Source: a bacterium (GTDB taxonomy: Bacteria; Lernaellota; Lernaellaia; Lernaellales; Lernaellaceae). Taken from it: DNA of 64,000 bases. Positions 4,041-57,567 of the stretch are shown in pieces. The stretch lies in the NCBI GenBank assembly GCA_036725605.1, contig DAIMDW010000001.1, positions 545,045 through 609,044 on the forward strand, read 5' to 3'. How positions within the stretch are numbered: the stretch's first letter is position 1; each line of letters starts with the position of its first letter. Under the pieces are notes generated by a model. That model did not search any database. It was given only the letters and a program-made list of their open reading frames with translations, and was not told the DNA's origin. The translations under genes were made by a program, and so were the position numbers.

Positions 4041-5891
4041 TTACTCTTCCACCTCGATCTGATCCGGATAGGTGATCTTGATGTACATGTTGTCGCCGAA
4101 ATCCTGCTGGCAGGCGAATTCGGCTTCCTCGCCGTCGGGCCACACGACGCGCAAGGTGCACTCGCAGCTCATCGCGCCCAGGCCGAAGTGCTGTACGCGC
4201 GTGCTTTCCGAGTTGTAGTGGCCCTTGCTCGATTTCTTTTCGCGCATCAGCGTTACGTCGTCGGATTCAAGGTACAGCCGCGCGCCGATCGCGTCGCGGT
4301 TGATGTTCTCGCCGTCGCCTTCCAGCCGCACGGCCAACCAGCGGTTTTCCTGCCCGATGTCGTTGCGCAGCAGGAAATTCGGCCGTCCGCCGCCCAGGTC
4401 GCCCGCGCCGGTGAACAGGTCGAGGTCGCCGTCGTGGTCGATGTCGATCCAGATGTTGTTGCTGGTGCTCTTTGCGCGAATCCACACCGTATCGTCCGGA
4501 TCGTTGATGCCGCTGGCTTCGCCGAAGGATTGGAACGTGCCGTCATCGAGCTGCCGCCACAGGCCGAACCAACCTTTCATATCCCACTCGTAGTAGCGGT
4601 CCTCGTACTTTTTGTCGCGCGACAGGGAAAGGTCGAGTCGACCGTCGTTGTCGAAATCGACCATCGCGCCGTCAATGTCGCCTTCGTTGAAGATCAGGCC
4701 GCGCTCGAGGAACTCGTTGGTGAAGTAAAAGTCCTCGTCGTCGCCGCCGTTGATCAACAGTTGCGTCGGGTCCGACCATTTGCGCAGTTCGTCGGTGTTG
4801 GTCGCGTGCGAAATGGTGGTCAGGAAGATATCCAGGTCGCCGTCGTTGTCCACGTCGCCGCAGTCGATGCCGAAGCCGTTGCTGCCCACGTAGGTGCCCG
4901 GTTCCGCGCCGGGTTCGGGCGCGGTGCCGTGATCGGTGGTCACCAGGTAGTAGTTGCCGGTCGCCAGGCTGGCGAAGCCGCGCTCGACGGCCACGTTGGT
5001 GAAGTTGCCCTCGCCGTCGTTTTCCCACAGATGGTTCAGACCGTTGAGCGTCGAGACGCTGTAGGTCGACACGAAAATATCCAGGTCGCCGTCGTTGTCG
5101 TAATCGGCCGTGATGCACCCGTTGGTCGGCTGGGCAGTCTGGTCGGCCAGGCGGTCGGAGACGTCCTCGAACGTGCCGTCGCCGTTGCCGAAGTACAGCA
5201 GGTCGGTCGCGGCGTACATCGTGTGGCCGTTGCCGACGAACAGGTCGAGGTTCGCGTCGCCGTTGAAGTCGGCGAACAACGCGTTGCCCGCGTAGGTTTT
5301 GTAATTGCCGTCGACGCCCGAGTCGTCCAGGACGGTGAAATGTCCCTCGCCGTCGTTGAGCAATATTTCGCTGCGGTAATCCTCGTAGCGGAAGATATCC
5401 AACCCGGCGAACGCGTCCTGGTCGCCGTCGTTGTCCACGTCGCCGAAGGCGAAGAAGCCGGCCTGAATGTCGCGCAGGCCCGACTCGTCGCTGAAATCGG
5501 TGAACGTGCCGTCGCCGTTGTTGAGGAAAACGAGGTGTTCGAAGGGCACGCCGTTTTGCGCATTGGGGAACAGGCTGTGCATCAACAGGTCGTCGTAACC
5601 GTCGCCGTTGATGTCCGCGCTTTCCACCCGGGCGTGGTCGTTGCGCTGAATGTCTTCGGGCGGATCTTCATAGTAATTGTCCACCCGCATGCCGCTTTGG
5701 TCGGAGATGTCGACGAAGAAATCCGCTTCCGGCTCGACCGGATCGCTCGGATCGCATTCATAGTTGTCGTCGTCATCATCGTCGTCGTCATCGTCGTCAT
5801 CGTCGTCGTCATCGCACGAGCAGGCTCCGATGGCCAGCGACAGCGCGCCGCACAGCAACAACACCAAAAACAGTCGGCTCCAGATTTTCAT
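4041..5891 (-). CDS. Secreted FG-GAP/VCBS repeat lipoprotein with ASPIC/UnbV-like C-terminal domain (CRTAC1-like) and poly-Asp linker
   Basis: Signal peptide with LAIGAC lipobox, followed by a run of about 20 Asp. Multiple D-x-D-x-DG-x-x-D calcium-binding FG-GAP motifs occur (DVDNDGDLDIF, DYDNDGDLDIFV, DFNGDANLDLFV). The C-terminus (RDAIGARLYL...GHYNSES..FGLG) resembles ASPIC/UnbV. Confidence 0.75.
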   Translation of the reverse strand: MKIWSRLFLVLLLCGALSLAIGACSCDDDDDDDDDDDDDDDDNYECDPSDPVEPEADFFVDISDQSGMRVDNYYEDPPEDIQRNDHARVESADINGDGYDDLLMHSLFPNAQNGVPFEHLVFLNNGDGTFTDFSDESGLRDIQAGFFAFGDVDNDGDQDAFAGLDIFRYEDYRSEILLNDGEGHFTVLDDSGVDGNYKTYAGNALFADFNGDANLDLFVGNGHTMYAATDLLYFGNGDGTFEDVSDRLADQTAQPTNGCITADYDNDGDLDIFVSTYSVSTLNGLNHLWENDGEGNFTNVAVERGFASLATGNYYLVTTDHGTAPEPGAEPGTYVGSNGFGIDCGDVDNDGDLDIFLTTISHATNTDELRKWSDPTQLLINGGDDEDFYFTNEFLERGLIFNEGDIDGAMVDFDNDGRLDLSLSRDKKYEDRYYEWDMKGWFGLWRQLDDGTFQSFGEASGINDPDDTVWIRAKSTSNNIWIDIDHDGDLDLFTGAGDLGGGRPNFLLRNDIGQENRWLAVRLEGDGENINRDAIGARLYLESDDVTLMREKKSSKGHYNSESTRVQHFGLGAMSCECTLRVVWPDGEEAEFACQQDFGDNMYIKITYPDQIEVEE

Positions 5892-6799: not shown

Positions 6800-6929
6800 T
6801 GCACACCCCTTTCCGGAACAACGGCGGTTCGCCTAAGGTACAAAATCCAAGCAAAGTCAGTCAAGAAAGATCGCACCCGCCGGCGGAAATTCCGGTATGA
6901 TGCGACCACAAACCGACGGAAAAGCGATC

Positions 6930-7412
6930 ATGAGCGATTATCCCATCACCCAGGCGGTGCGCGCGTTGCGACAGTACAAAATCGACTTCACGCCCACGCC
7001 GTACCCCTACGAGGAGCACGGCGGCACCCGGCGCGCGTCGCAGATGCTGCACGTGCCCGAGCACGTCGTCATCAAGACTCTGGTCATGCAGGATGAGAAC
7101 AAAAAACCGCTACTGGTGCTCATGCACGGTGATCGTGAAGTGTCGACCAAGCAACTGGCGCGCGAACTGGGCGTGAAGGCGGTCTCTCCCTGCGAAGAGA
7201 AAATCGCCGAGCGCCTGACCGGCTATAAGGTCGGCGGCATCAGCCCCTTCGGCGTGCGCGCCCAAATGCCCGTGTGCGCCGAAGCGACGATCTTCGAACT
7301 CGAGGCGATCCACATCAACGGCGGCAAACGCGGCTTCCTGGTGCGCATCGACCCGCGCGACATTGAAAAGGCGATGACCGTCCGCCGCGTCAACGTCGCC
7401 GTCGAACCGTAA
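6930..7412 (+). CDS. ybaK: YbaK/ProX-type aminoacyl-tRNA deacylase (Cys-tRNA(Pro) deacylase family)
   Basis: Conserved T.A...L......F........Y pattern at the N-terminus, with KTLV...........L.LMHGDREV..K.L.......K and GY.VGGISPFG typical of the YbaK domain. RBS GGAAAAG lies upstream of the ATG at 6930. Confidence 0.7.
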   Translation: MSDYPITQAVRALRQYKIDFTPTPYPYEEHGGTRRASQMLHVPEHVVIKTLVMQDENKKPLLVLMHGDREVSTKQLARELGVKAVSPCEEKIAERLTGYKVGGISPFGVRAQMPVCAEATIFELEAIHINGGKRGFLVRIDPRDIEKAMTVRRVNVAVEP

Positions 7413-7467
7413 GCTTTTCTCCAACCTCGCCTTTCGCTACACTAGCGAAAAATCCCAAAGGATGCGG

Positions 7468-9288
7468 ATGGAATCGGTCGGCGAAATGTTGGCGCGTTAC
7501 GGCCACCTGTTGGCGCAGGGTTGGTGGTTGCCGCTCGTGTGCTTTGCCGTCGGTCTGATATTGCCCTTCGCGCGCCGTCCCCGCGTCACGCGCTGGGCGC
7601 TGCCTTTGTTGATCGTCGGACTCGGCATCGCGTTCGCGCATCTAAAAACGGCGATGTACGACGACGCCTATTATTCCTTCCGCTGCGCGCACAACCTGAT
7701 CGCCGGCAACGGTCTGGTGTACAACATCGGCGAACGCCTGGAGGTCTACACCAACTTTCTCTGGACGATCTGGCTGGCGCTGTGGATGCGCCTGACCGGG
7801 TTCAACGCGCCGTTCGTTTCCATCGTCTTTACCCTCGCCTGCTTCCTCGGCAATTTGCTGATCGTTTATCGCCTCGGCCTGTTGCTGAGCGCCACGAACA
7901 AAATCGTTCACTATTGGCCGCTGGCCGCATTGTTGCTCGCCGGGCAAAATTCCTTCGCGTCCTTCGCGTCCACCGGGTTGGAAACGATGGCCGGCAGCCT
8001 GTTGGTCAATGTGGGCTTGTTGTTTCTGCTGACCGCCGCCGATACGCGCCGGGCGTTTTTGGCCGGATTCTTTTTCATCCTGGCGACGCTCAACCGCCTC
8101 GACCACAGCCTGTTTTACGTCGCCGGCGCATTCGCTCTGCTCTGGATGAACCGCGGCGCGCTGACCGCCCTTTTGCGCGGCCGCTGGTCGGCCGCCCGCG
8201 CACAGGGGCTCGATCGTTTGCTCGCCTACGCCCTCGCGCTCGTGCCGCTGCTGGCCTACCTGGGCTGGAAACTCGCCTACTACGGCTCGCTGCTGCCCAA
8301 CACCTTTTTCGCCAAGTCGGCGTACATTCCCTATGCCTACCAGGGCTTGCGCTACCTCGCCGCCTTTTACCTGGGCAGCCATTTGTGGGTGGCGCTGCTC
8401 TTGATGCTCGTCTGGTTCCTGCGCCCCACCGACGACGACCGCGTGCGCACGATGAAGACCTTCACCCTCGCCGCGTTCGTTTTGTGGCACGCGTATATTC
8501 TCTGGGTCGGCGGTGACTACCTTTACGGTCGCTTCATGGTCGTGTTCATGCCCTTGGCGCTGCTGGCGGCGGAAAATCTCACCTTCACCGGCCTGCGGCG
8601 CAAATGGGTGATGCACCTGACGGCCGCGTTGCTGGCGGCGACCGCCTGCGGTGTGCAACTGATCACCCCCGGCACCGGCGACTGGTGCATGATGGACGAA
8701 ACCACGCACTCGCCCGACAGCGTGATGCATCTGTACCGGGAACGCGACCAACACGAACTTCGTTTCGCCTGTCTGCTCGGCGCCGGCTTCGCCCCGAAAA
8801 TCCTGGTCGATGGGCGCGACGGCTACACGGTCGCCTTGCCGGCCGTCGATCGCTGGGGGCTGACCGATCCGCAACTCGGCCGGCGACCGCTGACGCAACG
8901 CACTTGCCCGGGCCACGAGAAATACGCATCGCTGGAAGACCTCGTCGCGCGCGACGTGCGCCTGTCGGCCCTGCCGCTGGAGATATTCACCGACCGGCAC
9001 CAAACGGTGAACGATCTGCACCTGCCCTGCGGCGAAGTGAAGATGCTCTTCTATGACCGCGCCTGGCTCGATCGTCTGCAGGCGGCGCTGCCGGAAGTGC
9101 GCTTCGTCGACTTCCCGGCGTTTCTCGACGAATACATCGCGGCCCTGCCCGGCAAAACGCCGCCGGAAGTGGCACAGGATTTGCGCGATTTCCGCCGGTA
9201 CTATTTCGCCGTCAACGACGATCCGCCGCGGCTGCAGGTGTTAATTGATTATCTGACCGCGAAAAATGTTTTGACGCCGTCACCGTAA
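7468..9288 (+). CDS. Polytopic membrane protein, putative GT-C fold glycosyltransferase (ArnT/PMT-like), paralog 1
   Basis: About 12 predicted TM helices. A DDAYYSFRCAHNL..GNG motif sits in the first extracytoplasmic loop, comparable to the DE/DD..RYA catalytic loop of GT-C enzymes. A roughly 200-aa soluble C-terminal domain carries a conserved CPGHEKY motif. Confidence 0.45.
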   Translation: MESVGEMLARYGHLLAQGWWLPLVCFAVGLILPFARRPRVTRWALPLLIVGLGIAFAHLKTAMYDDAYYSFRCAHNLIAGNGLVYNIGERLEVYTNFLWTIWLALWMRLTGFNAPFVSIVFTLACFLGNLLIVYRLGLLLSATNKIVHYWPLAALLLAGQNSFASFASTGLETMAGSLLVNVGLLFLLTAADTRRAFLAGFFFILATLNRLDHSLFYVAGAFALLWMNRGALTALLRGRWSAARAQGLDRLLAYALALVPLLAYLGWKLAYYGSLLPNTFFAKSAYIPYAYQGLRYLAAFYLGSHLWVALLLMLVWFLRPTDDDRVRTMKTFTLAAFVLWHAYILWVGGDYLYGRFMVVFMPLALLAAENLTFTGLRRKWVMHLTAALLAATACGVQLITPGTGDWCMMDETTHSPDSVMHLYRERDQHELRFACLLGAGFAPKILVDGRDGYTVALPAVDRWGLTDPQLGRRPLTQRTCPGHEKYASLEDLVARDVRLSALPLEIFTDRHQTVNDLHLPCGEVKMLFYDRAWLDRLQAALPEVRFVDFPAFLDEYIAALPGKTPPEVAQDLRDFRRYYFAVNDDPPRLQVLIDYLTAKNVLTPSP

Positions 9289-9322
9289 CGCATACAATCC
9301 GTCCGAAGGGGATCACGTCGGC

Positions 9323-11170
9323 ATGCAACAGCCTTTGCACGAAATCGCAGCCATCGCCGCACGGTTCAGCATCCAGCATTGGTGGTTGCTGGTTCTACCG
9401 GCGTTGGCCGGTTTTTTCGCCGCCGGCTGGTCGCGGCCGAAAGAGCGCCGCTGGTTTCATCACCTGCCGACCGTCGTTTTGCTCGTCGCCGGACTGGCGC
9501 TGGTCGTGCGCAACACGGCGATTTTCGACGACGCGTATTACTCCTTCCGTTGCGCGCGCAATCTGGCCGACGGTTACGGCCTGGTGTTCAATCCCGGGCA
9601 GTATTTCGAAATCTACACCAACTTTCTCTGGACGATCTGGCTGGCGCTGTGCCTCAAGCTCAGCGGCCTGAACCTGGAGATCCTCGCCGTTCTCTCCAAT
9701 TACGCCTGTTGGCTCGCCAACATGATCGTCATTTACAAAATCGGCCTCGCCCTCAACGCCAAAAGCAAACATTACTTCCCGCTGGCGGTGCTCGTGTTGG
9801 CGCTGCAGTACTATTTCATGTCCTTCGGCACCTCCGGCCTGGAAACGATGGCCGGCAGTCTGCTGGTGAACCTCGGCGCGTATTTTCTGCTCAGCGAGCG
9901 CACGTATGGTCGCTCGTTCCTGGCCGGATCGTTTTTCATCCTCGCCGTGTTCAACCGGATGGACCACGCGCTGTTTTTCCTCTGCGGCACGGCGGCGCTG
10001 TTGTGGCGCGATCGCTCCCATTGGTCGGCGCTTGTCAGGCGCGATTGGCCGGGCGGCCGCGCCGCCTTGTATCACTTGCTCACCTTCGCCTCACCGCTGC
10101 TGCCGTACGGCGCGTACCTGTTGTGGAAGGTGCACTACTACGGCTCGCTTTTCCCCAGTGCGTTTTACGCCAAGTCGGCCGCCGCGTCGTATTACCATCA
10201 GGGGTTGATCTACACGCTGATGTTCTACCTGGGCTCGCATTTTTACGTGTTGCTGCCGTTGTTGCTGCTGTGGCTGTCGGCCGGCCGTCTGAAAAAGACG
10301 GATGAAACGCCGGGCGCCTCGGTGTTTCGCCTGTTCGCCCTCGCGTCGATCGCCGTCTGGCATTTCTACGTGATCCGCGTCGGCGGCGATTACCTGATCG
10401 GCCGCTTCTACGTCGTCCTGATGCCGTTGATGATCCTCGGCGGCGAGCACTTCATTTTTTCGCAACTGACCAACCGCATGGCGCAGCGGATTCTCGCGGC
10501 CCTGGTCGCCGCCGCCGCGTTCGGCGTACCCTTGCTCGCCGGCATGGAAGGCGCTTATTGCCAGATGGACGGGCACAACCATTACCAGAAATACATTCCG
10601 ACGATCTGGGAAAACCGCAACAATCACGAGCGCACGTTCCCCTGTTTCGCCGAGAAAAGCCTTTCGCCGCTGGTGTTGGCCGACGCGAAATACGGATACG
10701 ACTCAGCGCTGCCGATCATCGATCGCTGGGGCATCACCGATCCGCAATTCAGCCGGAGAAAGGTCGAACATCGCGGCTGCCCCGGCCACGAAAAATATGT
10801 TTCGTTGCAGGAACTGGTCGACCGCGGCATTCGTCTGTCGTTGATTCCCACCGAGCTGTTCGACAATCGCCATCAGGACATCAACGATCTGGTCACGCCC
10901 TGCGGGACGATCGACCTGCTGGTGTACGACCTTACTTTCGTCGACGATCTGCGTGAACATTTGTCTGACGTGACGCTGCCCGACTTCCCCCAATTCCTCG
11001 ACGGCTACCTGGCCGAGTTGACGCAAAAATCGCGCCCCGAAGTGGCCGAGGATTTAAAGAACTTCCAGTTTTATTATTTTAATCTTCATCCGGATCCGGC
11101 GCGCCTGCAGCCGATCCTCGATTACCTCGCGGAGGGTTCGACGGCCAGCGCGGTCAACGCCGCTCCCTGA
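9323..11170 (+). CDS. Polytopic membrane protein, putative GT-C fold glycosyltransferase, paralog 2 (tandem duplicate of 7468..9288)
   Basis: Same architecture and motifs as paralog 1 (DDAYYSFRCARNLADGYG, YTNFLWTIWLAL, CPGHEKYVSLQELVDRGIRLS), about 45% identity by eye. Confidence 0.45.
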   Translation: MQQPLHEIAAIAARFSIQHWWLLVLPALAGFFAAGWSRPKERRWFHHLPTVVLLVAGLALVVRNTAIFDDAYYSFRCARNLADGYGLVFNPGQYFEIYTNFLWTIWLALCLKLSGLNLEILAVLSNYACWLANMIVIYKIGLALNAKSKHYFPLAVLVLALQYYFMSFGTSGLETMAGSLLVNLGAYFLLSERTYGRSFLAGSFFILAVFNRMDHALFFLCGTAALLWRDRSHWSALVRRDWPGGRAALYHLLTFASPLLPYGAYLLWKVHYYGSLFPSAFYAKSAAASYYHQGLIYTLMFYLGSHFYVLLPLLLLWLSAGRLKKTDETPGASVFRLFALASIAVWHFYVIRVGGDYLIGRFYVVLMPLMILGGEHFIFSQLTNRMAQRILAALVAAAAFGVPLLAGMEGAYCQMDGHNHYQKYIPTIWENRNNHERTFPCFAEKSLSPLVLADAKYGYDSALPIIDRWGITDPQFSRRKVEHRGCPGHEKYVSLQELVDRGIRLSLIPTELFDNRHQDINDLVTPCGTIDLLVYDLTFVDDLREHLSDVTLPDFPQFLDGYLAELTQKSRPEVAEDLKNFQFYYFNLHPDPARLQPILDYLAEGSTASAVNAAP

Positions 11171-14246: not shown

Positions 14247-15863
<1,617 letters not shown>

Positions 15864-16279
15864 AGTCCTCCCCGTGCAACAAAACAGTATAAGCGTTCCA
15901 TTTCAAGTTAGTATCGGCTTTTTTCCGGAAAGATTACACTTGTTTTTTGCATCTTCATTCCTTTCTGGAAGAAAAGGTCCATTGCTTTTATCTCGCTGAC
16001 AATCATTTTCGTTTGCCATATATTATCATATGGTTATCGTTTTTTGCCACCCTTGGATTGAAATCGTCGCTCATCGGCTGACGTCGCCCGCCGATCGACG
16101 CGGTCCTTGTCGATGATCGAAGATTTTCATCCCCTCGCTCCCCCTTCTGTCGCAACCATTCCCGCCTCAAATTCCCAAAAAATTAAATCCAGGTACAATG
16201 GCGCTTTTCCGATAAATATCACGAGGGGGATCGTATAGCTCGATTGAGCCCAAAAAAAAATTTCCCAGGGGAAGTGCTA

Positions 16280-18172
16280 ATGAAACTTCGCAATCGGTTA
16301 TTGATATATATCATTTGCAGCATGACTCTTGCCACGCTCCTGTACTATGGGGTTTTTTACTTCTTCGTCTACTACAGCTACCAGAATCTGGAAGATGAAC
16401 TGGCGATTCGAAATTTAAATCGAAGCGCAGCGGCATTGCAGCGCGAAATTGAACAGTTGAGCATTTTCGTTCGAGATTGGGCGACCTGGGACGATTCATG
16501 CCAGTTTCTTATCGATAAAAATGAGAACTTTATAAAATCCAACCTTAGCCAGGTTACCTTTGCGAACAATAAAATTGTATCAATATATTATTATGATAAT
16601 AATGGAAAGCTTGTATGGGGCAGATCCTACGATAGTGAATTCAAAATGGAAATCCCGTTGCCGATGTTGGACGCCCCCGACCAACGGGCGATAGCCCCTC
16701 TGCTTCGTCATAATGATATCGATGACTTCACTTTGGGATTGATGCGGGTTGGCGATAGTATTCTGATGATTGCCTCCTTGCCCATTATCACTTCCGATCG
16801 TAAGGGACCCGTCCGCGGTACGCTGGTTATGGGTCGCCTCCTGACCGATCAGGTCGTGGAACAGCTACGAAAACAAACAGAAGTTCAACTCTTGTACTGG
16901 CCGATCAACTCGACGCTTCTCCCGCAAGACAAGCAATTCATTCTCTCTCAGCTAACCGAGGCAAATTCCATTCACGTGGAACGCAAAAGCAGTTCCATCC
17001 TCAACGCTTATACCGTGCTCAATGACATCTACGGAAAACCCCTGCTGTTGTTGGAAGCGACCACTCCTCGGCACATCACGGCTCAGGGGCGCAATACCTT
17101 ATATTATACGCTTGGTTTCTTGCTCGCTTTCAGCGTTGTGATCATTGCCATTTTCATCCGCATGACCGATCGCCTGGTCACCAAGCCGCTGGAACAATTG
17201 ACGCAATCGGTGTTGACCATCGGCAAAACGGCCGATTTGTCCCTGCCCGTCGCCATGGACCGCGCCGACGAAATGGGCGTGCTGTCGCGCGAATTCGACG
17301 CCATGAACCACAAACTTTATGAAGCGCAAAGGCGTCTGCTGGATCAGTCCTACTATGCCGGCATGTCCGAACTGGCCACGGAGATCCTGCACAACGTCGG
17401 CAACATCCTCACCAGCATCAACACGTCGGTGAACCTGGTGGAGGAAAAACTGGATCAAAGTTCCATCAAAACGCTGCCTAAGGCGGTGGACCTGCTCAAC
17501 GAACACAAAAACGATCTGGCCGATTTCCTCACCAACGACCCCAAGGGACAACGACTGATAGATTATTTTAATAGCCTTGTCGAGCAAACCGAAGTGGAAT
17601 TGCTCATTCTCGAGGAAAACATCGACTCGCTGCAGAAAAACCTGGATCACTCGCAGACGATCATGCAATTGCAGCAGGACCACGCGAAAGCGCCGGGATT
17701 CACCGAACGGATTTCCCTGGAAGAGCTGGTGGAAAACGCGATTAAAATAAACGAGCACGTATTGGCGCGTGAGGCGATCGACGTCGAGCGTAATTACGAA
17801 TCGTTTCCGCCCATGCTGGCTGAAAAGCACCGGATTCAGATGATCCTGATCAACCTGACGCGCAATGCCATCTCGGCCTTGATGGAAAAGAAAAACGGCG
17901 ACCGAACGATTTTATATCGTATCTATCGTCAGTCGCCACAAAGTGTTTCTATTGAAGTCAAGGATACGGGAATTGGTATTGCGAAGCAGAATCTTTCCAA
18001 TATATTCTCCTATGGTTTTACAACCAAGGAACATGGACACGGTTTTGGCTTGCACAGTTCCGCCAACGCCGCAAAAGCCATGGGAGGCAAACTTAAAGTT
18101 GCCAGTGAGGGGATCGACAAGGGCGCTACATTCATTCTTGAAATACCCATTGAGCCTAAATCAAATGAGTAG
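16280..18172 (+). CDS. Sensor histidine kinase with CHASE4-like periplasmic domain paralogous to the neighbouring cyclase sensor
   Basis: The sensor segment aligns with the cyclase sensor (DWATWDDSCQF..KNENFIKSNL versus DWAAWNDTVQF..RNENYINGNL). A HAMP domain follows, then a HisKA-like H-box and an HATPase_c region with N, G1 and G2 boxes (DTGIGI...GFGLHSS). Confidence 0.8.
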   Translation: MKLRNRLLIYIICSMTLATLLYYGVFYFFVYYSYQNLEDELAIRNLNRSAAALQREIEQLSIFVRDWATWDDSCQFLIDKNENFIKSNLSQVTFANNKIVSIYYYDNNGKLVWGRSYDSEFKMEIPLPMLDAPDQRAIAPLLRHNDIDDFTLGLMRVGDSILMIASLPIITSDRKGPVRGTLVMGRLLTDQVVEQLRKQTEVQLLYWPINSTLLPQDKQFILSQLTEANSIHVERKSSSILNAYTVLNDIYGKPLLLLEATTPRHITAQGRNTLYYTLGFLLAFSVVIIAIFIRMTDRLVTKPLEQLTQSVLTIGKTADLSLPVAMDRADEMGVLSREFDAMNHKLYEAQRRLLDQSYYAGMSELATEILHNVGNILTSINTSVNLVEEKLDQSSIKTLPKAVDLLNEHKNDLADFLTNDPKGQRLIDYFNSLVEQTEVELLILEENIDSLQKNLDHSQTIMQLQQDHAKAPGFTERISLEELVENAIKINEHVLAREAIDVERNYESFPPMLAEKHRIQMILINLTRNAISALMEKKNGDRTILYRIYRQSPQSVSIEVKDTGIGIAKQNLSNIFSYGFTTKEHGHGFGLHSSANAAKAMGGKLKVASEGIDKGATFILEIPIEPKSNE

Positions 18173-18184
18173 AGAGGCGATTCA

Positions 18185-21100
18185 ATGAATCGCAGAATTT
18201 TATTGATCGACGATAATCAAAACATTCATTTCGATTTTCGTAAGATCTTTGCTTCCGAGCAGGCGAACCCGGAATTGTCAAAGCTTTCTCAACTGTTGTT
18301 CGACGATTTTCCCCTGCCCGTCAGCAGCATCGAATTTACCATCGATTCCGCTTATCAGGGGATGGAGGGCGCCGAGCTGGCGCGCCAGGCCCGGGCGGAT
18401 AACAATCCCTATGCGATGGCCTTCGTCGACGTGCGGATGCCGCCGGGCTGGGACGGCGTGGAAACCGCAAAACATCTCTGGGAAATCGATCCGGATTTGC
18501 AGCTCGTGCTGTGCACGGCATTTTCCGATTATTCGTTTCGTCAGATCATTCAGCAATTGGGCGTCACCGACCGTCTGTTGATCCTGAAAAAGCCGTTCGA
18601 TTTGATGGAAGTTCGCCAACTGGCCATCTCCATTACCGAGAAATGGAATTTGCAACAAACGGCCAGACAAGCGACCATGGAACTGGAGGCGCATCGCGAT
18701 CGCCTCGATTCTCTGGTGCACGAGCGCACGTCTGAACTTGAACGCACCTACGACGAACTGAAAAAAGAAACCTCGGAACGCGAGCAGATAACCCACCAAC
18801 TGCACAACAACGAATTGCTCTTCCGGTTGTTGACCGACAACATGAACGACCTGGTCGCCATCACCGACGCCAAGGCGGTATTCACCTACGTTAGTCCGTC
18901 CTACGTCGCCGTCCTCGGACATGAGCCCCGGCAGTTGTTGGGAAAATCCTTTTACTCGCTGATTCATCCGGACGACCGCCAGCAGGTCTTCGAAAAGCTG
19001 CAGGACGGCGACCATCTGCGCGATTCTTCCTCCGCCGTCTATCGCATGCAACATCGGGAAGGACACTACCTGTGGTTTGAAACCATCGGGCGTATCGTCG
19101 GGCATGAAGGCGATCTGATGTTCGGCGCCGTTTTCAACACGCGCGAGATCACCGATCGGATTCTGGCCGAGGAAAAAGCCGCATTCACCCGCCAGCGCAT
19201 TCAGCGACAGCAACGGGCCATCGTGAAGATTCTGACCGGCCAGTCGCAGTTCGAAGTGGGATTCCTCGATTCGGTGCGCAAAACGTTGGAAATCGCCACC
19301 AAAGCCTTGCAGGTCGAGCGCAGCGGGATTCTGTTGTTCACCGAAAACCGGGAAGAATTGCAATGCATCAATCTTTTCGATTCCGCGACCAACAGCCATT
19401 CCAAGGGACTGACGATCAACGTTCACGATTGTCCCAATTACTTCGCGGCGGTGCAGAGCAGCCGGGCGATCGACGCCACCAACGCCCGTGAGGATTCGCG
19501 AACCAGGGAGTTATTGGAAAGTCTGTTGATCCCCAATAATATATCCTCGCTCTTGGATGCCGCGATTCGCTCGCACGGCGACGTGGCCGGCGTCGTCTGT
19601 TTTCAGCACACCGGGACGCCGCGCAAATGGGAACCAGATGAAGTCACCTTCGCCGGCGAAGTGGCCGACTACTTGTCGCAAATCCTCATCATCAACAAAC
19701 GAAAACAGGCGGAAAACGCGCTCCGGGAAAGCGAGGAAAGGTTCCGCACGCTGCACGAGGCGTCGTTCGGGGGCATCGGCATTCACGACAATTTCATCTT
19801 GCTCGACGCCAATCGTTCGCTGTGCCGGATGATGGGCTACTCCTATCGGGAGTTGATCAATACCAACGTCCTGCGTTTGATCGCGCCCGAATGGCGGGAA
19901 ATCGTTTCTCAACACATCGAAGAAAAATTACAGAAACCCTACGAAGCGACCGGCATGCGCAAGGACGGTTCACTGTTCCCGTTGGAAATTCAGGGCCGCT
20001 CGTTGCCGTACCAGGGGCGCATCGTCAATGTTACCGAATTCCGCGACATCACCGAACGGGTCGAGGCGGAAAACGAACGCACGCACCTCGAAGCGCAGTT
20101 GCTGCAATCGCAAAAAATGGAAGCCATCGGGCGTCTGGCCGGCGGCGTGGCGCACGATTTCAACAACATCCTGACCGGCATCAACGGCTACGCCGAAATT
20201 CTCCTGGCCAATCTCGACCCCAACGATCCGCTGTACAGCGACATCGAGGAAATCCTCCGCGCCGGCAAGCGGGCCACGGAATTGACCAACCAACTGCTCG
20301 CCTTCAGCCGCAAACAAGTCACGCATCCGAAGATCATTCAAGCCAACCAGATCATCGCCAACGCGCAAAAAATGCTCGCCCGCATCATCGGCGAGGACAT
20401 CGACCTGGTTTTCCGCGAGGATCCGGAACTCTGGCCGATCATGATGGACCCCTCGCAGCTCGACCAGATTCTGGTGAACCTGTCGGTCAATGCGCGCGAC
20501 GCCATGCTGCACGGCGGTAAACTGATTATTGAGACGAAAAATATTGTCATTCCGCCGCAGGATGCGCGTTTTCATGACAGCCGGGAGAACGGGCAATACA
20601 TCTGTCTCAGCGTCATCGACACCGGCCACGGCATGGACGAGGAAACCAAACAGCACCTCTTCGAGCCCTTTTTCACGACCAAGCCCAAAGGCAAAGGCAC
20701 CGGCCTGGGCCTGGCCACCGTGTACGGCATCGTCGAGCAGAACGACGGCATCATCGAGGTCGAATCGACGATCGACAAAGGCACCGAGTTTCACCTCTAC
20801 CTGCCCCGCGCCGGCGAAGCCGTCGAAGACGATTATGTCGAAAAGCCATCGCTCACCATTCCCACCGGCAACGAAACGATCCTGCTCGTCGAGGACGAGG
20901 ATATGGTGCGCAGCCTGGCGAAAAAGATTCTCGAAATGCACAACTACAAAGTGCTGGAGGCGTCCGGAGCGGGCGAAGCGCATTTCATCTGCCAGAACGA
21001 ATTGGAGAATATCGACCTGCTGCTCTCCGACGTGGTCATGCCGCGCATGAGCGGACAGGATTTGTATCACATGCTGCGCAAGAACAAACCGCAATTGAAG

Positions 21101-21235
21101 GCGGTGTTCATGTCTGGCTACACCGAAGACGCCATCGCCAGCCACGGCTCGATGGAACCGGGGACCTGGTTCATCCAAAAGCCGTTCACCATTGAGTCGC
21201 TCGCCCGGAAGGTGCGTGAAGCGCTCGACACTTGA
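18185..21235 (+). CDS. Hybrid sensor histidine kinase/response regulator (REC-PAS-GAF-PAS-HisKA-HATPase-REC)
   Basis: N-terminal receiver (LLIDDN...VDVRMPPGWDG). PAS and GAF segments. H-box HDFNNILTGINGYAEIL. HATPase G-boxes (DTGHGMD, GTGLGLA). C-terminal receiver (LLVEDEDMV...DVVMPRMSG). Confidence 0.85.
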   Translation: MNRRILLIDDNQNIHFDFRKIFASEQANPELSKLSQLLFDDFPLPVSSIEFTIDSAYQGMEGAELARQARADNNPYAMAFVDVRMPPGWDGVETAKHLWEIDPDLQLVLCTAFSDYSFRQIIQQLGVTDRLLILKKPFDLMEVRQLAISITEKWNLQQTARQATMELEAHRDRLDSLVHERTSELERTYDELKKETSEREQITHQLHNNELLFRLLTDNMNDLVAITDAKAVFTYVSPSYVAVLGHEPRQLLGKSFYSLIHPDDRQQVFEKLQDGDHLRDSSSAVYRMQHREGHYLWFETIGRIVGHEGDLMFGAVFNTREITDRILAEEKAAFTRQRIQRQQRAIVKILTGQSQFEVGFLDSVRKTLEIATKALQVERSGILLFTENREELQCINLFDSATNSHSKGLTINVHDCPNYFAAVQSSRAIDATNAREDSRTRELLESLLIPNNISSLLDAAIRSHGDVAGVVCFQHTGTPRKWEPDEVTFAGEVADYLSQILIINKRKQAENALRESEERFRTLHEASFGGIGIHDNFILLDANRSLCRMMGYSYRELINTNVLRLIAPEWREIVSQHIEEKLQKPYEATGMRKDGSLFPLEIQGRSLPYQGRIVNVTEFRDITERVEAENERTHLEAQLLQSQKMEAIGRLAGGVAHDFNNILTGINGYAEILLANLDPNDPLYSDIEEILRAGKRATELTNQLLAFSRKQVTHPKIIQANQIIANAQKMLARIIGEDIDLVFREDPELWPIMMDPSQLDQILVNLSVNARDAMLHGGKLIIETKNIVIPPQDARFHDSRENGQYICLSVIDTGHGMDEETKQHLFEPFFTTKPKGKGTGLGLATVYGIVEQNDGIIEVESTIDKGTEFHLYLPRAGEAVEDDYVEKPSLTIPTGNETILLVEDEDMVRSLAKKILEMHNYKVLEASGAGEAHFICQNELENIDLLLSDVVMPRMSGQDLYHMLRKNKPQLKAVFMSGYTEDAIASHGSMEPGTWFIQKPFTIESLARKVREALDT

Positions 21236-34137: not shown

Positions 34138-34659
34138 TCAGGGCAGGATCTCGATCGGCGTACCTTCGTTCACCCTGGCCCATAACTGGGCCATCTCGAC
34201 GTCGGTCAACGCGATGCAGCCGTGCGTCCAGTCGTACCAACGATGGAAGCGCCCGATCCACCCCAGGCCGTTGGACATGCCGTGAATCATGATATCCCCG
34301 CCCGGGCTGCATCCCCGCTCGGCCGCCGCGGCCACGTCCCCCGCATCGGGATACGACACGTGAAACGAGCGATAGCAACAACTGTCCGGATTGCGCCAAT
34401 CCAGCACGTAACTGCCCTCCGGCGTTTTGCTGTCGCCTTGGCATACCTTGTCGCCGCGCGGCCGGCGTCCCAGCGAAATGGGATAGCGCACCAATTCGCG
34501 CTCGTCGCTCATCACCGCCAAACGCCGCGCGGACTTGTACACGATCAAATGAGTGACCGGCGCATCGGCGGGAATCGGCCGTACCGGCCAAAAGTAATAG
34601 ACGATCGCCGCTGCCGGACAGGCCAGCAACACGCCGACGATAATGGCCAATCGTTTCAT
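34138..34659 (-). CDS. L,D-transpeptidase (YkuD domain) with N-terminal membrane anchor
   Basis: IMIHG...........WTHGCIAL with a catalytic His/Cys pair. N-terminal hydrophobic helix. Confidence 0.65.
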   Translation of the reverse strand: MKRLAIIVGVLLACPAAAIVYYFWPVRPIPADAPVTHLIVYKSARRLAVMSDERELVRYPISLGRRPRGDKVCQGDSKTPEGSYVLDWRNPDSCCYRSFHVSYPDAGDVAAAAERGCSPGGDIMIHGMSNGLGWIGRFHRWYDWTHGCIALTDVEMAQLWARVNEGTPIEILP

Positions 34660-36653: not shown

Positions 36654-37739
36654 TCAAGAAGCGTCGTCAGGCGAGCCTTCGGGCTTCGGCTCCGCCTTCA
36701 CCACCTTTTTTCGTTTCGGCATGCCCAGAATCTGCGGGAAAAAGCGGTTGATGATCTCGACCATCGGCCAAACGACCAACAGCGTGCCGGCGGTGTAAAA
36801 AACCGCCCACAGCGGATCGTGGAAGGTTTCCTTGACGTTGATGCCCAATACCTGTTTGCAGATGGGCAGGAAAATGCCGATTGCCATCACGTGCAAACCC
36901 AGGATGGGTAGCGAGTTGACGCCTACCCACTTGATGACCGGCACGCGGTCAATCAACTGCGAGAAGAGAATGAAAAAGCCCACCGCCGCCAATGCCGCCG
37001 GGTGGAACAGGAAAAACCGGCCGATGTTGTTGTCCATCATGTGGATCTCGGGATTGATCCAGACGAACACCACGCTGATGGCGAACAGCGCCGCCGCCAG
37101 CGGTATCTTTTGCCATAACTTCAGATCCCAGCCCGCGCCCCAGCGTTTATAAAACAAATGCCCCAGACCGTAGTACACGACGATGGTCAGCGCGATGTCC
37201 ATGTTCCACGGCAGGCGGAACGGCAGGATACGCCCGAGAATAAAGCCGATGAACGAAATGACGAACATCCAGGTGATCAGCTTTTTGTTCGACTTGTACT
37301 TCAGGCGCAGCCAATAAAACAGTTGATCGGCGCTGAACAACGCGGTCAAAAACCACAGCGGAATGTTATGCGGAATCAGCGGCGCGGTGCCCCAGAACGT
37401 TCCCAGAATCGGAATGAAAATCAGAATGCAATAACCGCCGCGCTGAAACTCCTGGTTCAACGAGACGAAACCACCGGCGAACACCACCCAGAACGCCAGG
37501 CTGATGAACGAAAAAGCGAAGTACGGCACGACCAGCCGGCGCACGCGTTTTCTGAAGAAATCCTTGTGCGAGGCGTATTTGCCCGCGTCGAAGAAAAAAC
37601 CGGAGGCGAAAAAGAACACCGGAATCAGCACCAACTGCAGGTACTTGGAAACCGTGTCGCCCGGTTTGTTGTGCGCATACATGACCATCAACAAAGCCAG
37701 ACCGCGCATCGTGTCCAGCCAGTCGATTCGCTTTTTCAT
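36654..37739 (-). CDS. Acyltransferase family 3 membrane protein (O-acyltransferase)
   Basis: N-terminal WLDTMRGLALLMV motif and about 10 TM helices. Confidence 0.6.
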   Translation of the reverse strand: MKKRIDWLDTMRGLALLMVMYAHNKPGDTVSKYLQLVLIPVFFFASGFFFDAGKYASHKDFFRKRVRRLVVPYFAFSFISLAFWVVFAGGFVSLNQEFQRGGYCILIFIPILGTFWGTAPLIPHNIPLWFLTALFSADQLFYWLRLKYKSNKKLITWMFVISFIGFILGRILPFRLPWNMDIALTIVVYYGLGHLFYKRWGAGWDLKLWQKIPLAAALFAISVVFVWINPEIHMMDNNIGRFFLFHPAALAAVGFFILFSQLIDRVPVIKWVGVNSLPILGLHVMAIGIFLPICKQVLGINVKETFHDPLWAVFYTAGTLLVVWPMVEIINRFFPQILGMPKRKKVVKAEPKPEGSPDDAS

Positions 37740-41110: not shown

Positions 41111-41276
41111 GACCTCCTCCCATTTTTTATGTTCTTCGGATTCCTGCCCCTTTACTCTCCGACAAATCACGGCGCTTGGCAACTGGGCAAGCGAAAACGA
41201 GCTGTCCGATTCCTGTTGAAATTGAACCAGTTATGCATTAAAAATGCGCGAAACCGATCACCCGTGGAAGGGAAAA

Positions 41277-42581
41277 ATGGCGAGCGTACACACCACCGAA
41301 CGAGACTACTACATCGATTTCGCCAAGGGCATCGCGGTGTTCATCATGGCCTGGGGCCACACCATGTATTACACGCAGTGGCTGCCCCATAACACCGTCG
41401 AATACGCCTTTCTATGGGCTTTTTCCGAACTGAGCATGCCGATCTTCGTCCTGGCCTCGGGGATGAACGTGGTCAGCCAGGTCAAGCGGATGAAGGCCGA
41501 TTCGTCGTGGCGGCCCACCCTGGCCTTCCTCGGCTCGATCGCCTGGCTGTTTATGCTCGGTTTCATTTACAACATCAACCGGCGCAGCCTGGGCCTGATG
41601 GACCTGTTCCACATGGTGGCCATGGGCACCGCGCTGGCGTTCATCGTGTCGCGTCGCGAGTGGCCGACCTGGTCGATCATCGGCCTTTCGGCGGGCATCT
41701 TCGGCGTTTCGGCCGTACTGAGCCTCGACGCCATTCCGATCAGCACGGAAATTCTGAAAAACTTCGACTACACGCGTTTCCTCAAACGGCCGAGCGATCC
41801 GTTTATCGCGCAGGCGGTGACCAACATCACCATGGGCGAATTGAAAAAGAAGGCGGTGCTCGAATTTCCCTTGTGGCGGCGTATCTTGCACATCCACTTC
41901 GCGCTGATTCCCTGGGCGGGATTTTTCCTGACGGGCGTGGTGCTCAAGCGCCTGCGCAACACCATGTGGGAATGGGTGCTGGTCGGCGTTTCCCTCGCTC
42001 TGTTCGTGGTAACGTTCCTCACGCTGCCCACCTTCGTGCCCGTCGACGATTTCGGCTTCTACCAGCGCAGCCGCGCCGATTACATCGCGCGTTTGCTGTT
42101 CACCGGCGTGCTGGCGATGGTCTTGCTGTCACGTTACTACCACCGGGCCAAAGGGGCTTTCGCCAAAGCGGCGGAACTGGCCGGGCGCGAATCGTTCATC
42201 TTTTTCGTCTGCCACTGGGGCGTGATCTGGATCTCCGCCAGCTTCTCGAACATCTTCTTGCACAACTTCAATTACTGGAAGGTCTGGGTGATCCAGATTC
42301 CGCTGAACCTGTTCCTGTCGTATAAATTTACGCAACTCATGGCCTGGTGGCGCGACAAGACGATCATCAATCCGGGCTATGCGAAAACCTGGCTGAGCAT
42401 CCTGATCATCTGCGCCCTGATCGCCGTGCGGGCCGACGCGCGCGGCAACATCTTTTTACTTAAAGTATTCAGCTTCCCCGCTTCGGTCGCCGTGGCGATG
42501 GTCTGGCCGGTCGGCCGCAACTTCATTCGCGGCCTGGTCTATCGTCGGCAGATCAACGCCGCTAAAAAGGCCGCCGAATAA
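41277..42581 (+). CDS. Polytopic membrane protein, putative acyltransferase-3/DUF1624-like, paralog A
   Basis: At least 10 TM helices, N-terminal ERDYYIDFAKGIAVFIMAWGH. Tandem duplicate of the next gene. Confidence 0.45.
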   Translation: MASVHTTERDYYIDFAKGIAVFIMAWGHTMYYTQWLPHNTVEYAFLWAFSELSMPIFVLASGMNVVSQVKRMKADSSWRPTLAFLGSIAWLFMLGFIYNINRRSLGLMDLFHMVAMGTALAFIVSRREWPTWSIIGLSAGIFGVSAVLSLDAIPISTEILKNFDYTRFLKRPSDPFIAQAVTNITMGELKKKAVLEFPLWRRILHIHFALIPWAGFFLTGVVLKRLRNTMWEWVLVGVSLALFVVTFLTLPTFVPVDDFGFYQRSRADYIARLLFTGVLAMVLLSRYYHRAKGAFAKAAELAGRESFIFFVCHWGVIWISASFSNIFLHNFNYWKVWVIQIPLNLFLSYKFTQLMAWWRDKTIINPGYAKTWLSILIICALIAVRADARGNIFLLKVFSFPASVAVAMVWPVGRNFIRGLVYRRQINAAKKAAE

Positions 42582-57407: not shown

Positions 57408-57567
57408 TTCTTTATAAACTAATGATTTCCTCCAAACAAAACAACGAAGGATAATTTTTAATCCTCCGTCCGGCCGGTCCCTGCGGGAGTTATCCCACGC
57501 GGCGGTCTATACTTTTTTGTTGGGTAATGATAATCCTTTATGCTCAGTCGTTGCCGAAAGGAATTGT

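Follow-up and report, generated by a model that had tools for sequence, protein, structure and literature searches.

Tandem AftB-like proteins predicted to be GT-C_A membrane glycosyltransferases with a periplasmic cap

Two adjacent genes in the 64-kb stretch of bacterial DNA analysed here (the window), ORF A and ORF B, encode 'hypothetical proteins' that are distant relatives of the mycobacterial cell-wall arabinofuranosyltransferase AftB, and for which predicted catalytic, donor-phosphate and acceptor-side residues can be named. They represent a branch, as yet uncharacterised, of an enzyme type already known, and not a new kind of system. We assign a probability of roughly 0.8 to the explanation as a whole, namely that the pair arose when an inner-membrane GT-C_A glycosyltransferase was duplicated in tandem within this lineage, that the family to which it belongs is large, uncharacterised and distantly homologous to AftB over its whole length, and that the C-terminal domain is a cap that would hold the acceptor.

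Results

A tandem pair of paralogous genes

7462..9288, + strand: ORF A, predicted AftB-like GT-C_A glycosyltransferase paralogue, 608 aa from 7462 (likely true start 7468)
9289..9322, + strand: intergenic spacer of 34 bp, with GAAGGGGA 5' of the ORF B start
9323..11170, + strand: ORF B, the second, faster-diverging paralogue, 615 aa

The original prediction of two adjacent paralogues of ~610 aa was borne out. Both ORFs lie on the + strand, ORF A encoding 606 or 608 aa and ORF B 615 aa, and the proteins share about 46-47% identity over 604 aa (BLASTP, E = 0), a similarity far above chance expectation. Identity to any outgroup is at most 41% for ORF A and 34% for ORF B, and the same pair occurs on a related contig (P0003 and P0004). 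The sequence AAGGA lies 5 nt 5' of the second ATG of ORF A and thus favours the start at 7468 (606 aa), which is also where the NCBI/JGI annotation of this gene begins (606 aa, P0001). Residue numbers used here refer to the 608-aa frame from 7462; those of the annotated 606-aa protein are lower by two. The two genes are probably co-transcribed. A promoter and terminator scan was uninformative, returning one promoter-like site, no more than expected by chance, and terminator-like matches that all fell inside coding sequence.

A GT-C_A membrane module with the donor site of AftB

7462..8643, + strand: ORF A transmembrane GT-C module, residues 1-394 (from AF2 secondary structure, hydropathy, K+R bias and hhalign to AftB)
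7660..7689, + strand: DDAYYSFRCA, the DD motif at the start of juxtamembrane (JM) helix 1, ORF A residues 67-76 (from alignment and PMC12041299)
7975..7986, + strand: GLET, in which E174 aligns with McAftB E172, a donor sugar contact
8092..8106, + strand: NRLDH, in which R212 (family motif RPD) aligns by profile with McAftB R221 (RPE), a donor phosphate ligand
8278..8304, + strand: YYGSLLPNT, in which T281 aligns with McAftB T274, a donor sugar contact
8509..8535, + strand: GGDYLYGRF, in which R357 aligns with McAftB R372, a donor phosphate ligand
9527..9556, + strand: ORF B DD motif, D69-D70 (residues 69-78), from sequence

Sequence, profile and structural comparisons all led to AftB. A phmmer search of PDB sequences with either ORF returned only AftB (9dlf/9dlh; ORF A, E 8.7e-9 over residues 39-367; ORF B, E 5.4e-5), and the sole family matched was the NCBIfam model for AftB, NF041481, through the N-terminal half only. 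When the profile of the whole family was aligned with that of AftB by hhalign, the match extended over 466 columns, from TM1 through GLTD..PGHEK, with a probability of 99.9% and an E value of 2.5e-37. The AF2 model (pLDDT 92.1, pTM 0.92) has two juxtamembrane helices between TM1 and TM2 of a multi-TM module, the arrangement by which GT-C_A enzymes are recognized, and a Foldseek search with this model placed AftB at the top (E 1.1e-10), with only GT-C_A enzymes below it. The ORF A module comprises 11 core TM helices with the juxtamembrane helices, together with an extra N-terminal TM helix that is specific to this clade. The Pfam scan, by comparison, found no family at E <= 10 for ORF A, one irrelevant 13-bit match for ORF B and nothing useful for nine diverse relatives. 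NCBI applies the name 'ZomB' to fragments of AftB, but this lead was discarded: the ZomB described from Vibrio and Shewanella has a single transmembrane segment.

The donor site of AftB is recognizable in the alignment, with D62, T91, E172, R221, T274 and R372 of McAftB corresponding to D68, T97, E174, R212, T281 and R357 of ORF A. D62 of McAftB is experimentally essential, and mutation of D62, R221 or R372 abolishes activity (PMC12041299). D67, D68, E174 and R357 are invariant in 29 of 29 family members, while R212 is found in 28, T97 in 27 and T281 in 26 of them; the pairing of R212 with R221 comes from the profile alignment (RPD with RPE), the pairwise phmmer alignment pairing R212 differently. 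The motif DDAYYSFRCA(H/R)NL is present in both proteins, as had been noted, and its identification as the GT-C aspartate motif is supported by the alignment of D68 with the catalytic D62. Lys plus Arg make up 11 of 49 residues in loops assigned to the cytoplasm versus 9 of 115 in those assigned to the periplasm, and from this charge bias the DD motif and the donor-site residues are predicted to face the periplasm. No transporter family was matched. Taken together, the AftB matches, the model and the conserved donor site support the proposal that ORFs A and B are GT-C_A membrane glycosyltransferase homologues, and the conserved phosphate-binding residues R212 and R357 suggest that the donor would be a lipid-phosphate-linked sugar.

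An AftB-type periplasmic cap

8644..9285, + strand: ORF A periplasmic C-terminal cap domain (predicted), residues 395-608 (from hhalign and joint alignment to AftB)
8692..8712, + strand: MDETTHS, counterpart of AftB VDERRFY, with H416 and S417 at the positions of F448 and Y449 (joint alignment)
8845..8871, + strand: VDRWGLTDP, counterpart of AftB IDQIGLANP, with D463 at D541; G466 is invariant (159/159)
8905..8946, + strand: CPGHEKYASLEDLV, counterpart of AftB RIGHDKNLFPDW, ORF A residues 482-495, with C482 at R560 and H485 at H563
10517..11167, + strand: ORF B periplasmic cap domain (predicted), residues 399-615 (joint alignment)
10565..10585, + strand: MDGHNHY, in the ORF B cap
10718..10744, + strand: IDRWGITDP, in the ORF B cap
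10778..10819, + strand: CPGHEKYVSLQELV, ORF B residues 486-499, in the cap

The soluble C-terminal region (214 aa in ORF A, 217 aa in ORF B) had not been assignable, in the original prediction, to any known family. A profile of this domain indeed retrieved only noise from PDB sequences (E >= 0.07). When it was aligned by hhalign with the periplasmic domain of AftB, however, the E value was 9.6e-5 with 16 sequences and 4.9e-7 with 158 (probability 92.5%), which makes the alpha/beta lobe of the ORF A cap (residues ~395-524) a homologue of lobe 1 of the AftB domain, collinear with it after TM11. The helical lobe (~525-608) aligned neither to AftB nor to anything else, and cap homology is thus shown only for a core of ~70-130 residues. 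A PAFLDE/PAYLDE match within the helical lobe is only possible and is unsupported by the joint alignment.

The CPGHEK loop corresponds to GRIGHDK in AftB, where R560 and H563 are predicted to contact the acceptor. In the joint alignment of 159 sequences, H485 occupies the H563 position in all, D463 the D541 position as Asp or Glu in 158, and the position of Y449 is Tyr in 128. F448 and Y449, which are essential acceptor residues in AftB (PMC12041299), are replaced by His and Ser in ORF A, and by His and Tyr in ORF B. The position of R560 is Arg in 115 of the 159 members and Cys (C482) in ORFs A and B. The longer motif CPGHEKY(A/V)SL(E/Q)(D/E)LV, which the original prediction called invariant, is therefore so only in the two proteins and their close orthologues (P0002-P0004); across the 159 members G484 and H485 alone are invariant, E486 and K487 are nearly so and Y488 is variable, the Cys and Tyr being features of this clade. 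Together with C409, C437 and C523, C482 makes up a quartet of cysteines limited to six of the 159 sequences, all in this clade, and these may form periplasmic disulfides. By analogy with AftB, the cap motifs would lie close to the cavity that contains D68.

Divergence between the paralogues

The catalytic and phosphate-binding residues are retained in both proteins. The sugar-contact positions N280 and T281 of ORF A, in contrast, are Ser and Ala in ORF B, so that Ala stands at the position equivalent to T274 and Ser replaces the Asn before it, and the acceptor positions E413 and S417 are Gly and Tyr. In view of these differences, ORFs A and B probably differ in substrate or catalyse consecutive steps.

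A large family with variable gene neighbourhoods

The family comprises at least 3,745 clusters at 50% identity from many phyla, and was found at no fewer than 585 genome loci in Myxococcota, Planctomycetota, Ignavibacteria, Acidobacteriota, Leptospira and other phyla. In nearly all of the best 150 of the 3,745 clusters the C-terminal domain occupies residues ~380-630 of a ~600-aa protein, and the shorter hits among these 150 look like fragments. Cultured bacteria with a family member include Chondromyces apiculatus DSM 436, a Polyangium sp. and Leptospira ainazelensis. Fusions of family members to CapA-like PGA_cap domains recur. JGI labels many relatives 'arabinofuranosyltransferase', and PF26371, a Pfam model of the AftB C-terminus that precomputed annotation assigns to AftBs, is on none of the 120 relatives listed.

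No conserved partner gene was found across 82 homologous loci. The best non-family neighbour cluster, of Ser/Thr kinases, occurs at 9 of these and a GT2-plus-TM synthase-like cluster at 5, and the gene contexts of P0001, P0006 and P0021 have nothing in common. Neither a polyprenyl-phosphate-sugar synthase nor a UbiA-type DPPR synthase nor DprE1/E2 is encoded in the window; genes of DPA synthesis or of arabinogalactan are absent from the window and do not recur in the 82 loci. The contig carries a lipid A acyltransferase gene upstream and the window an OmpA-family gene, so that the organism appears to be diderm. Lipoprotein genes adjoin the ORF A/B pair. The poly-Asp lipoproteins encoded in the window had been suggested as targets of the two enzymes, a proposal that gained no support; gene context yields no acceptor. 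We know of no GT-C enzyme for which Asp side chains serve as acceptor.

Discussion

Homology to AftB suggests how the two proteins would work. The donor, a polyprenyl-monophosphate-linked sugar, would come in from the outer leaflet of the cytoplasmic membrane; R212 and R357, together with T97, would clamp its phosphate, and E174 and N280/T281 would place the sugar. The catalytic carboxylate would be that of D68, at the start of juxtamembrane helix 1. The periplasmic C-terminal cap would hold the acceptor, most probably the glycan of an envelope polymer or glycolipid, through the conserved DE..(F/Y)Y segment, the acidic residue that precedes GLTD and the (R)xGHEK loop, of which 'CPGHEKY' would be the version in this clade, with the usual Arg replaced by Cys.

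Because AftB ranks first in the sequence, profile and structure comparisons alike, it could be proposed that ORFs A and B are true AftB orthologues, that is, terminal beta-(1->2)-D-arabinofuranosyltransferases with decaprenyl- or polyprenyl-phospho-D-arabinofuranose as donor and an arabinan as acceptor. The conservation in ORF A of E172 and T274, which contact the Araf ring, and the JGI label of many relatives fit this proposal. It should be emphasized, however, that identity to AftB is only ~21%, that ORFs A and B score 42.8 and 32.3 bits against the NF041481 equivalog cutoff of 1050, and that the 120 relatives lack PF26371. Moreover, F448, Y449 and R560 of the AftB acceptor site are His, Ser and Cys in ORF A, DPA-pathway genes neither occur in the window nor recur near homologues, and the hosts are diderm lineages outside the Corynebacteriales with no known arabinan. 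We thus consider orthology very unlikely. The same holds for the view, closer to the original prediction, that the pair resembles ArnT or PMT and modifies lipid A with L-Ara4N, or mannosylates Ser/Thr of proteins, for instance the lipoproteins encoded nearby. The apparently diderm host, with its lipid A acyltransferase and OmpA-family genes, and the lipoprotein genes next door would suit such activities, but the PMT, PMT_2/ArnT-type and DUF2029 Pfam models (GT39, GT83 and GT87, respectively) gave no hit at E <= 10, AftB scored higher and aligned over 437 residues versus 332-372, the cap is of the AftB type and not a PMT MIR domain, and an arnBCADTEF-type context is absent.

The C-terminal domain could also be an independent module of a new family carried on a GT-C anchor, for example a His/Glu/Lys hydrolase or a metal site. 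That its profile had no Pfam or PDB sequence hit, and that the Cys quartet and nearby His residues in this clade could bind metal, are points in favour of this idea. We nevertheless regard it as highly improbable, since the conserved residues of the domain match, one-for-one, those predicted to contact the acceptor in the AftB cap, the domain is collinear with AftB and keeps its place in the ~600-aa protein in nearly all of the best 150 of the 3,745 clusters, and the Cys quartet is found in only 6 of 159 sequences.

On the AftB-like reading of ORFs A and B, the AftB architecture, including the periplasmic cap and its GH(D/E)K loop, extends beyond mycobacteria, and AftB is the tip of a large, uncharacterised multi-phylum family. 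The finding has value for annotation because no tested Pfam model detects the family, and it may inform thinking about the evolution of the AftB acceptor site. A more speculative proposal, which we hold to be improbable, is that the family is a widespread AftB-type transferase that, in diderms, uses a polyprenyl-phospho-pentofuranose or other unusual lipid-linked donor to modify an envelope or capsular polymer, with the acceptor site remodelled in this clade and the paralogues sharing the work. If so, the replacement of Arg by Cys within the Cys quartet, and of FY by HS or HY, would have adapted the enzymes to a new class of acceptor. The recurrent CapA-like PGA_cap fusions fit a role in decorating such polymers.

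With respect to known systems, ArnT (GT83), PMT1/2/4 (GT39), PglB/STT3 (GT66) and ALG9/ALG12 gave no sequence-profile match and have different soluble domains. A literature search found no characterised AftB-like enzyme from outside the actinobacteria. TfpW of Pseudomonas aeruginosa provides a Gram-negative precedent for D-arabinofuranose transfer in the periplasm (bioRxiv 10.1101/2020.04.19.049825); TfpW modifies protein and is tied to a pilin gene cluster, whereas the window has no pilin context. The closest known relative is AftB (Rv3805c family, a GT89-type terminal beta-(1->2)-arabinofuranosyltransferase; NF041481; 9dlf/9dlh; PMC12041299). The clade of ORFs A and B differs from it in the extra N-terminal TM helix, in H/S (A) or H/Y (B) for F448/Y449 and Cys for R560, in the lack of a ~45-residue Pro-rich insertion present in the AftB cap, and in its non-actinobacterial hosts and a gene context without DPA or arabinogalactan genes. 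Common to both, at ~21% identity, are the DD motif with the catalytic Asp positioned at the start of JM1, equivalents of T91, E172, R221 (RPE/RPD), T274 and R372, and counterparts of the cap motifs DE..FY, (I/V)D..GL.(D/N)P and GR.GH(D/E)K.

A tandem pair of AftB-like membrane proteins

The original prediction described two adjacent paralogues of about 610 aa, and this was borne out by same-strand ORFs whose products are 47% identical over 604 residues (BLASTP). Both motifs it quoted, DDAYYSFRCA(H/R)NL in a loop and CPGHEKY(A/V)SL(E/Q)(D/E)LV in the C-terminal domain, lie in each protein where it had placed them.

7462..9288, + strand, ORF A, 608 aa from the first ATG
9323..11170, + strand, ORF B, 615 aa

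Sequence inspection revealed AAGGA 5 nt ahead of the second ATG of ORF A, which favours a start at 7468 and a protein of 606 aa, as in the original prediction and the NCBI/JGI record (P0001, 'hypothetical protein PKW95_02260 [bacterium]', 606 aa); residue numbers here follow the 608-aa frame. As only 34 bp separate the genes they are probably co-transcribed. A scan for promoter and terminator signals around the pair returned nothing above chance. A sigma-70-like site on the + strand (9271-9298; TTGACG, 16-nt spacer, TACAAT; 10/12 matches), which lies across the end of ORF A and immediately ahead of ORF B, might serve as an internal promoter, but the number of such sites is no greater than the shuffled expectation.

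In a Pfam scan at E ≤ 10 no family was found for ORF A and only an irrelevant 13-bit match for ORF B; the GT83, GT39 and DUF2029 profiles that had been suggested thus matched neither. The sole curated family matched was the AftB equivalog NCBIfam NF041481 (43 bits for A, 32 bits for B), with the match limited to the N-terminal half and both scores far below the 1050-bit cutoff. Similarly, the sole significant PDB sequence match of both ORFs was AftB of Mycobacterium chubuense (McAftB), solved by cryo-EM (9dlf/9dlh), at E 8.7e-9 for ORF A (residues 39-367) and 5.4e-5 for ORF B. AlphaFold2, run on an alignment of 29 family sequences, gave a very confident model (pLDDT 92.1, pTM 0.92), and Foldseek searches with it returned AftB at the top (E 1.1e-10), the hits below it all being GT-C_A enzymes (STT3, ALG9, EmbB, ArnT and PglB). 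Profile–profile comparison (hhalign) of the family alignment, A1, with ten AftB orthologues, A3, gave a probability of 99.9% (E 2.5e-37, 466 aligned columns). These matches uphold the proposed GT-C kind, which is best narrowed to 'AftB-like'. Many relatives carry the JGI label 'arabinofuranosyltransferase'; a literature search found no characterised non-actinobacterial member of the AftB-like family.

Donor site and topology

In AftB the essential catalytic residue is D62, in the DD motif at the tip of JM helix 1; R221 and R372 are essential donor-phosphate ligands, and T91, E172 and T274 make additional donor contacts (PMC12041299). McAftB residues 33-380 were reassembled from the printed alignment, with numbering that agrees with PMC12041299. 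In the A1–A3 alignment McAftB D62, T91, E172, R221 (RPE), T274 and R372 correspond to ORF A D68, T97, E174, R212 (RPD in the family), T281 and R357, positions that are invariant or almost so across 29 diverse members; Asn280-Thr281 is replaced by Ser-Ala in ORF B alone. With the model helices taken as transmembrane segments, Lys plus Arg amount to 11/49 in loops assigned as cytoplasmic and 9/115 in periplasmic loops, a bias by which, on the modelled topology, the DD motif, E174, R212, R357 and the C-terminal domain all lie on the non-cytoplasmic side. A transporter-family match or a cytoplasmic DD motif, either of which was to count against the glycosyltransferase reading, did not emerge from the profile searches or the loop bias. 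The ORF A/B clade has one extra N-terminal transmembrane helix, missing in distant relatives.

The C-terminal domain

The C-terminal domain, previously considered unplaceable in any family, is identified as an AftB-type periplasmic cap by hhalign and by a joint alignment that sets 159 domains of the family against those of AftB. The full-length A1–A3 alignment passes unbroken through the GLTD..GHEK / GLANP..GHDK block, where the family consensus is ...IDxxGLTDxxxARxPxxxRGRPGHEKxxxxxYL... and that of AftB ...VIDQIGLANPLAAHTARLxDGRIGHDKNLFPDW.... Domain-only comparison with AftB periplasmic domains gave E 9.6e-5 with 16 sequences, and E 4.9e-7 with a 158-sequence profile (probability 92.5%, 68 columns, ORF A 438-505). 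The residues predicted to position the acceptor in the AftB cap are F448, Y449, T524, D541, R560 and H563, and F448 and Y449 mutants are inactive (PMC12041299). In orthologues with McAftB spacing these residues are located in DERRFY, FFTNLG, VIDQIG and GRIGHDK. AftB D564 and K565 align with ORF A E486 and K487.

Acceptor-positioning residues of AftB in the joint alignment (counts from 159 family domains)
AftB F448: A H416, B H420; family F 44, Y 32, V 28, I 15, H 13
AftB Y449: A S417, B Y421; family Y 128
AftB D541: A D463, B D467; family D 122, E 36
AftB R560: A C482, B C486; family R 115, K 10, C 6
AftB H563: A H485, B H489; family H 159

In the helical lobe, 'FPAFLDEY' (ORF A ~547-553, window 9100-9120 region) resembles 'VPAYLDEGW' of AftB lobe 2; the joint alignment leaves the two unpaired.

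Distribution, fusions and duplication

An exhaustive HMMER search with the domain profile matched at least 3,745 representative clusters (50% identity) at E ≤ 1e-3, 430 of them at ≤ 1e-30, and in nearly all of the best 150 of these 3,745 the domain occupies positions ~380-630 of a ~600-aa protein. None of the Pfam models tested, a set without PF26371, matched this family; PF26371, which covers the AftB C-terminal region only, is attached to no listed member in precomputed annotations. Species-representative genomes hold at least 585 confirmed relatives, hosts among the matches listed including Myxococcota (with Chondromyces apiculatus DSM 436 and Polyangium), Planctomycetota, Ignavibacteria, Zixibacteria, Eisenbacteria, Acidobacteriota, Acidimicrobiia, Leptospira ainazelensis, Chloroflexia, Kiritimatiellae and others. 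Five of nine unusually long members carry PGA_cap (PF09587, CapA-like capsule synthesis) at either end, and one of the nine a C-terminal Sulfatase/LtaS-type domain (PF00884); the long fusion relatives comprise P0191, P0201 and P0229 (N-terminal fusions), P0146 and P0156 (C-terminal) and P0161. These fusions may point to a family role in envelope or capsular polymer chemistry. Many partial mycobacterial AftBs (for example, P0271, P0274, P0276 and P0342) bear the NCBI name 'flagellar motor control protein ZomB', which looks like a propagated misannotation since the protein described as ZomB in Vibrio and Shewanella has a single transmembrane segment.

ORF A and ORF B are mutually nearest (46% identity in this comparison, with identity to outgroups at most 41% for A and 34% for B) and the pair recurs on a related contig (P0003 and P0004); the duplication is therefore lineage-specific yet old. 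ORF B is the faster-evolving copy; its Gly at the position of ORF A E413, together with the N280/T281 change, fits a divergence in substrate. Cysteines 409, 437, 482 and 523 (413, 441, 486 and 527 in ORF B) occur together only in the two ORFs and in P0001-P0004, their close orthologues; in most of the family the domain has 0-2 Cys. Being in a periplasmic domain, the four may form two disulfides. Local duplication recurs in other lineages (Krumholzibacteriota, Acidimicrobiales and Planctomycetota), with adjacent family pairs in tandem at loci L058 (7911-11272) and L061 (7395-11314) and divergent at L031 (5690-9644) and L032 (5632-9608).

Gene context

41-1693, −, TIR-domain and right-handed beta-helix (NosD-like) protein, low-GC stretch
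4041-5891, −, FG-GAP/ASPIC (UnbV) repeat lipoprotein, ~16-Asp run right after the lipobox Cys (…GACSCDDDD…NYEC)
6897-7412, +, YbaK-like aminoacyl-tRNA editing-domain protein, directly upstream of ORF A
14247-15863, −, and 16244-18172, +, divergent CHASE4-HAMP sensors, one a GGDEF diguanylate cyclase and one a histidine kinase
18185-21235, large hybrid PAS/GAF kinase, next to the CHASE4-HAMP pair
34138-34659, −, YkuD L,D-transpeptidase
36654-37739, −, and 41244-42581, +, Acyl_transf_3-type membrane acyltransferases
57517-60342, +, MMPL/RND-type transporter

A convergent GNAT acetyltransferase lies downstream of the pair, and FG-GAP/ASPIC and CarboxypepD_reg lipoproteins neighbour it on the opposite strand. 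Neither these nor the YbaK-like gene showed a functional link to glycosyltransferases. The 4041-5891 product is the 'poly-Asp lipoprotein' once proposed as a target, and nothing connects it with ORF A or ORF B. The gene upstream of relative P0006 encodes YqeY (GatB-like; L002 9502-9996); that small tRNA-related genes precede both it and ORF A is probably coincidence. None of the envelope-related genes (acyltransferases, L,D-transpeptidase, MMPL/RND transporter) adjoins the pair. The 41-1693 stretch (GC 0.47 against ~0.60 elsewhere; GC3 0.42) may be horizontally acquired and defence-related; GC is also lower, 0.49-0.51, around the CHASE4-HAMP sensors. Clustering of all ORFs of 82 homologous loci yielded no recurrent neighbour, and the 64-kb window contains no lipid-linked-sugar synthesis genes.

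Relationship to AftB

ORF A and ORF B are very unlikely to be AftB orthologues: they score far short of the equivalog cutoff, PF26371 is attached to no listed family member, some of the acceptor residues are changed, and no supporting gene context was found in the window or at the 82 loci. Most likely they work in the manner of AftB, with a polyprenyl-phosphate donor supplying the sugar and a periplasmic glycan receiving it. ORF A shares the donor-site residues with AftB, and ORF B all but T274 (Ala). In the cap, D541 and H563 are conserved in both; at the positions of F448, Y449 and R560, ORF A has His, Ser and Cys and ORF B has His, Tyr and Cys.
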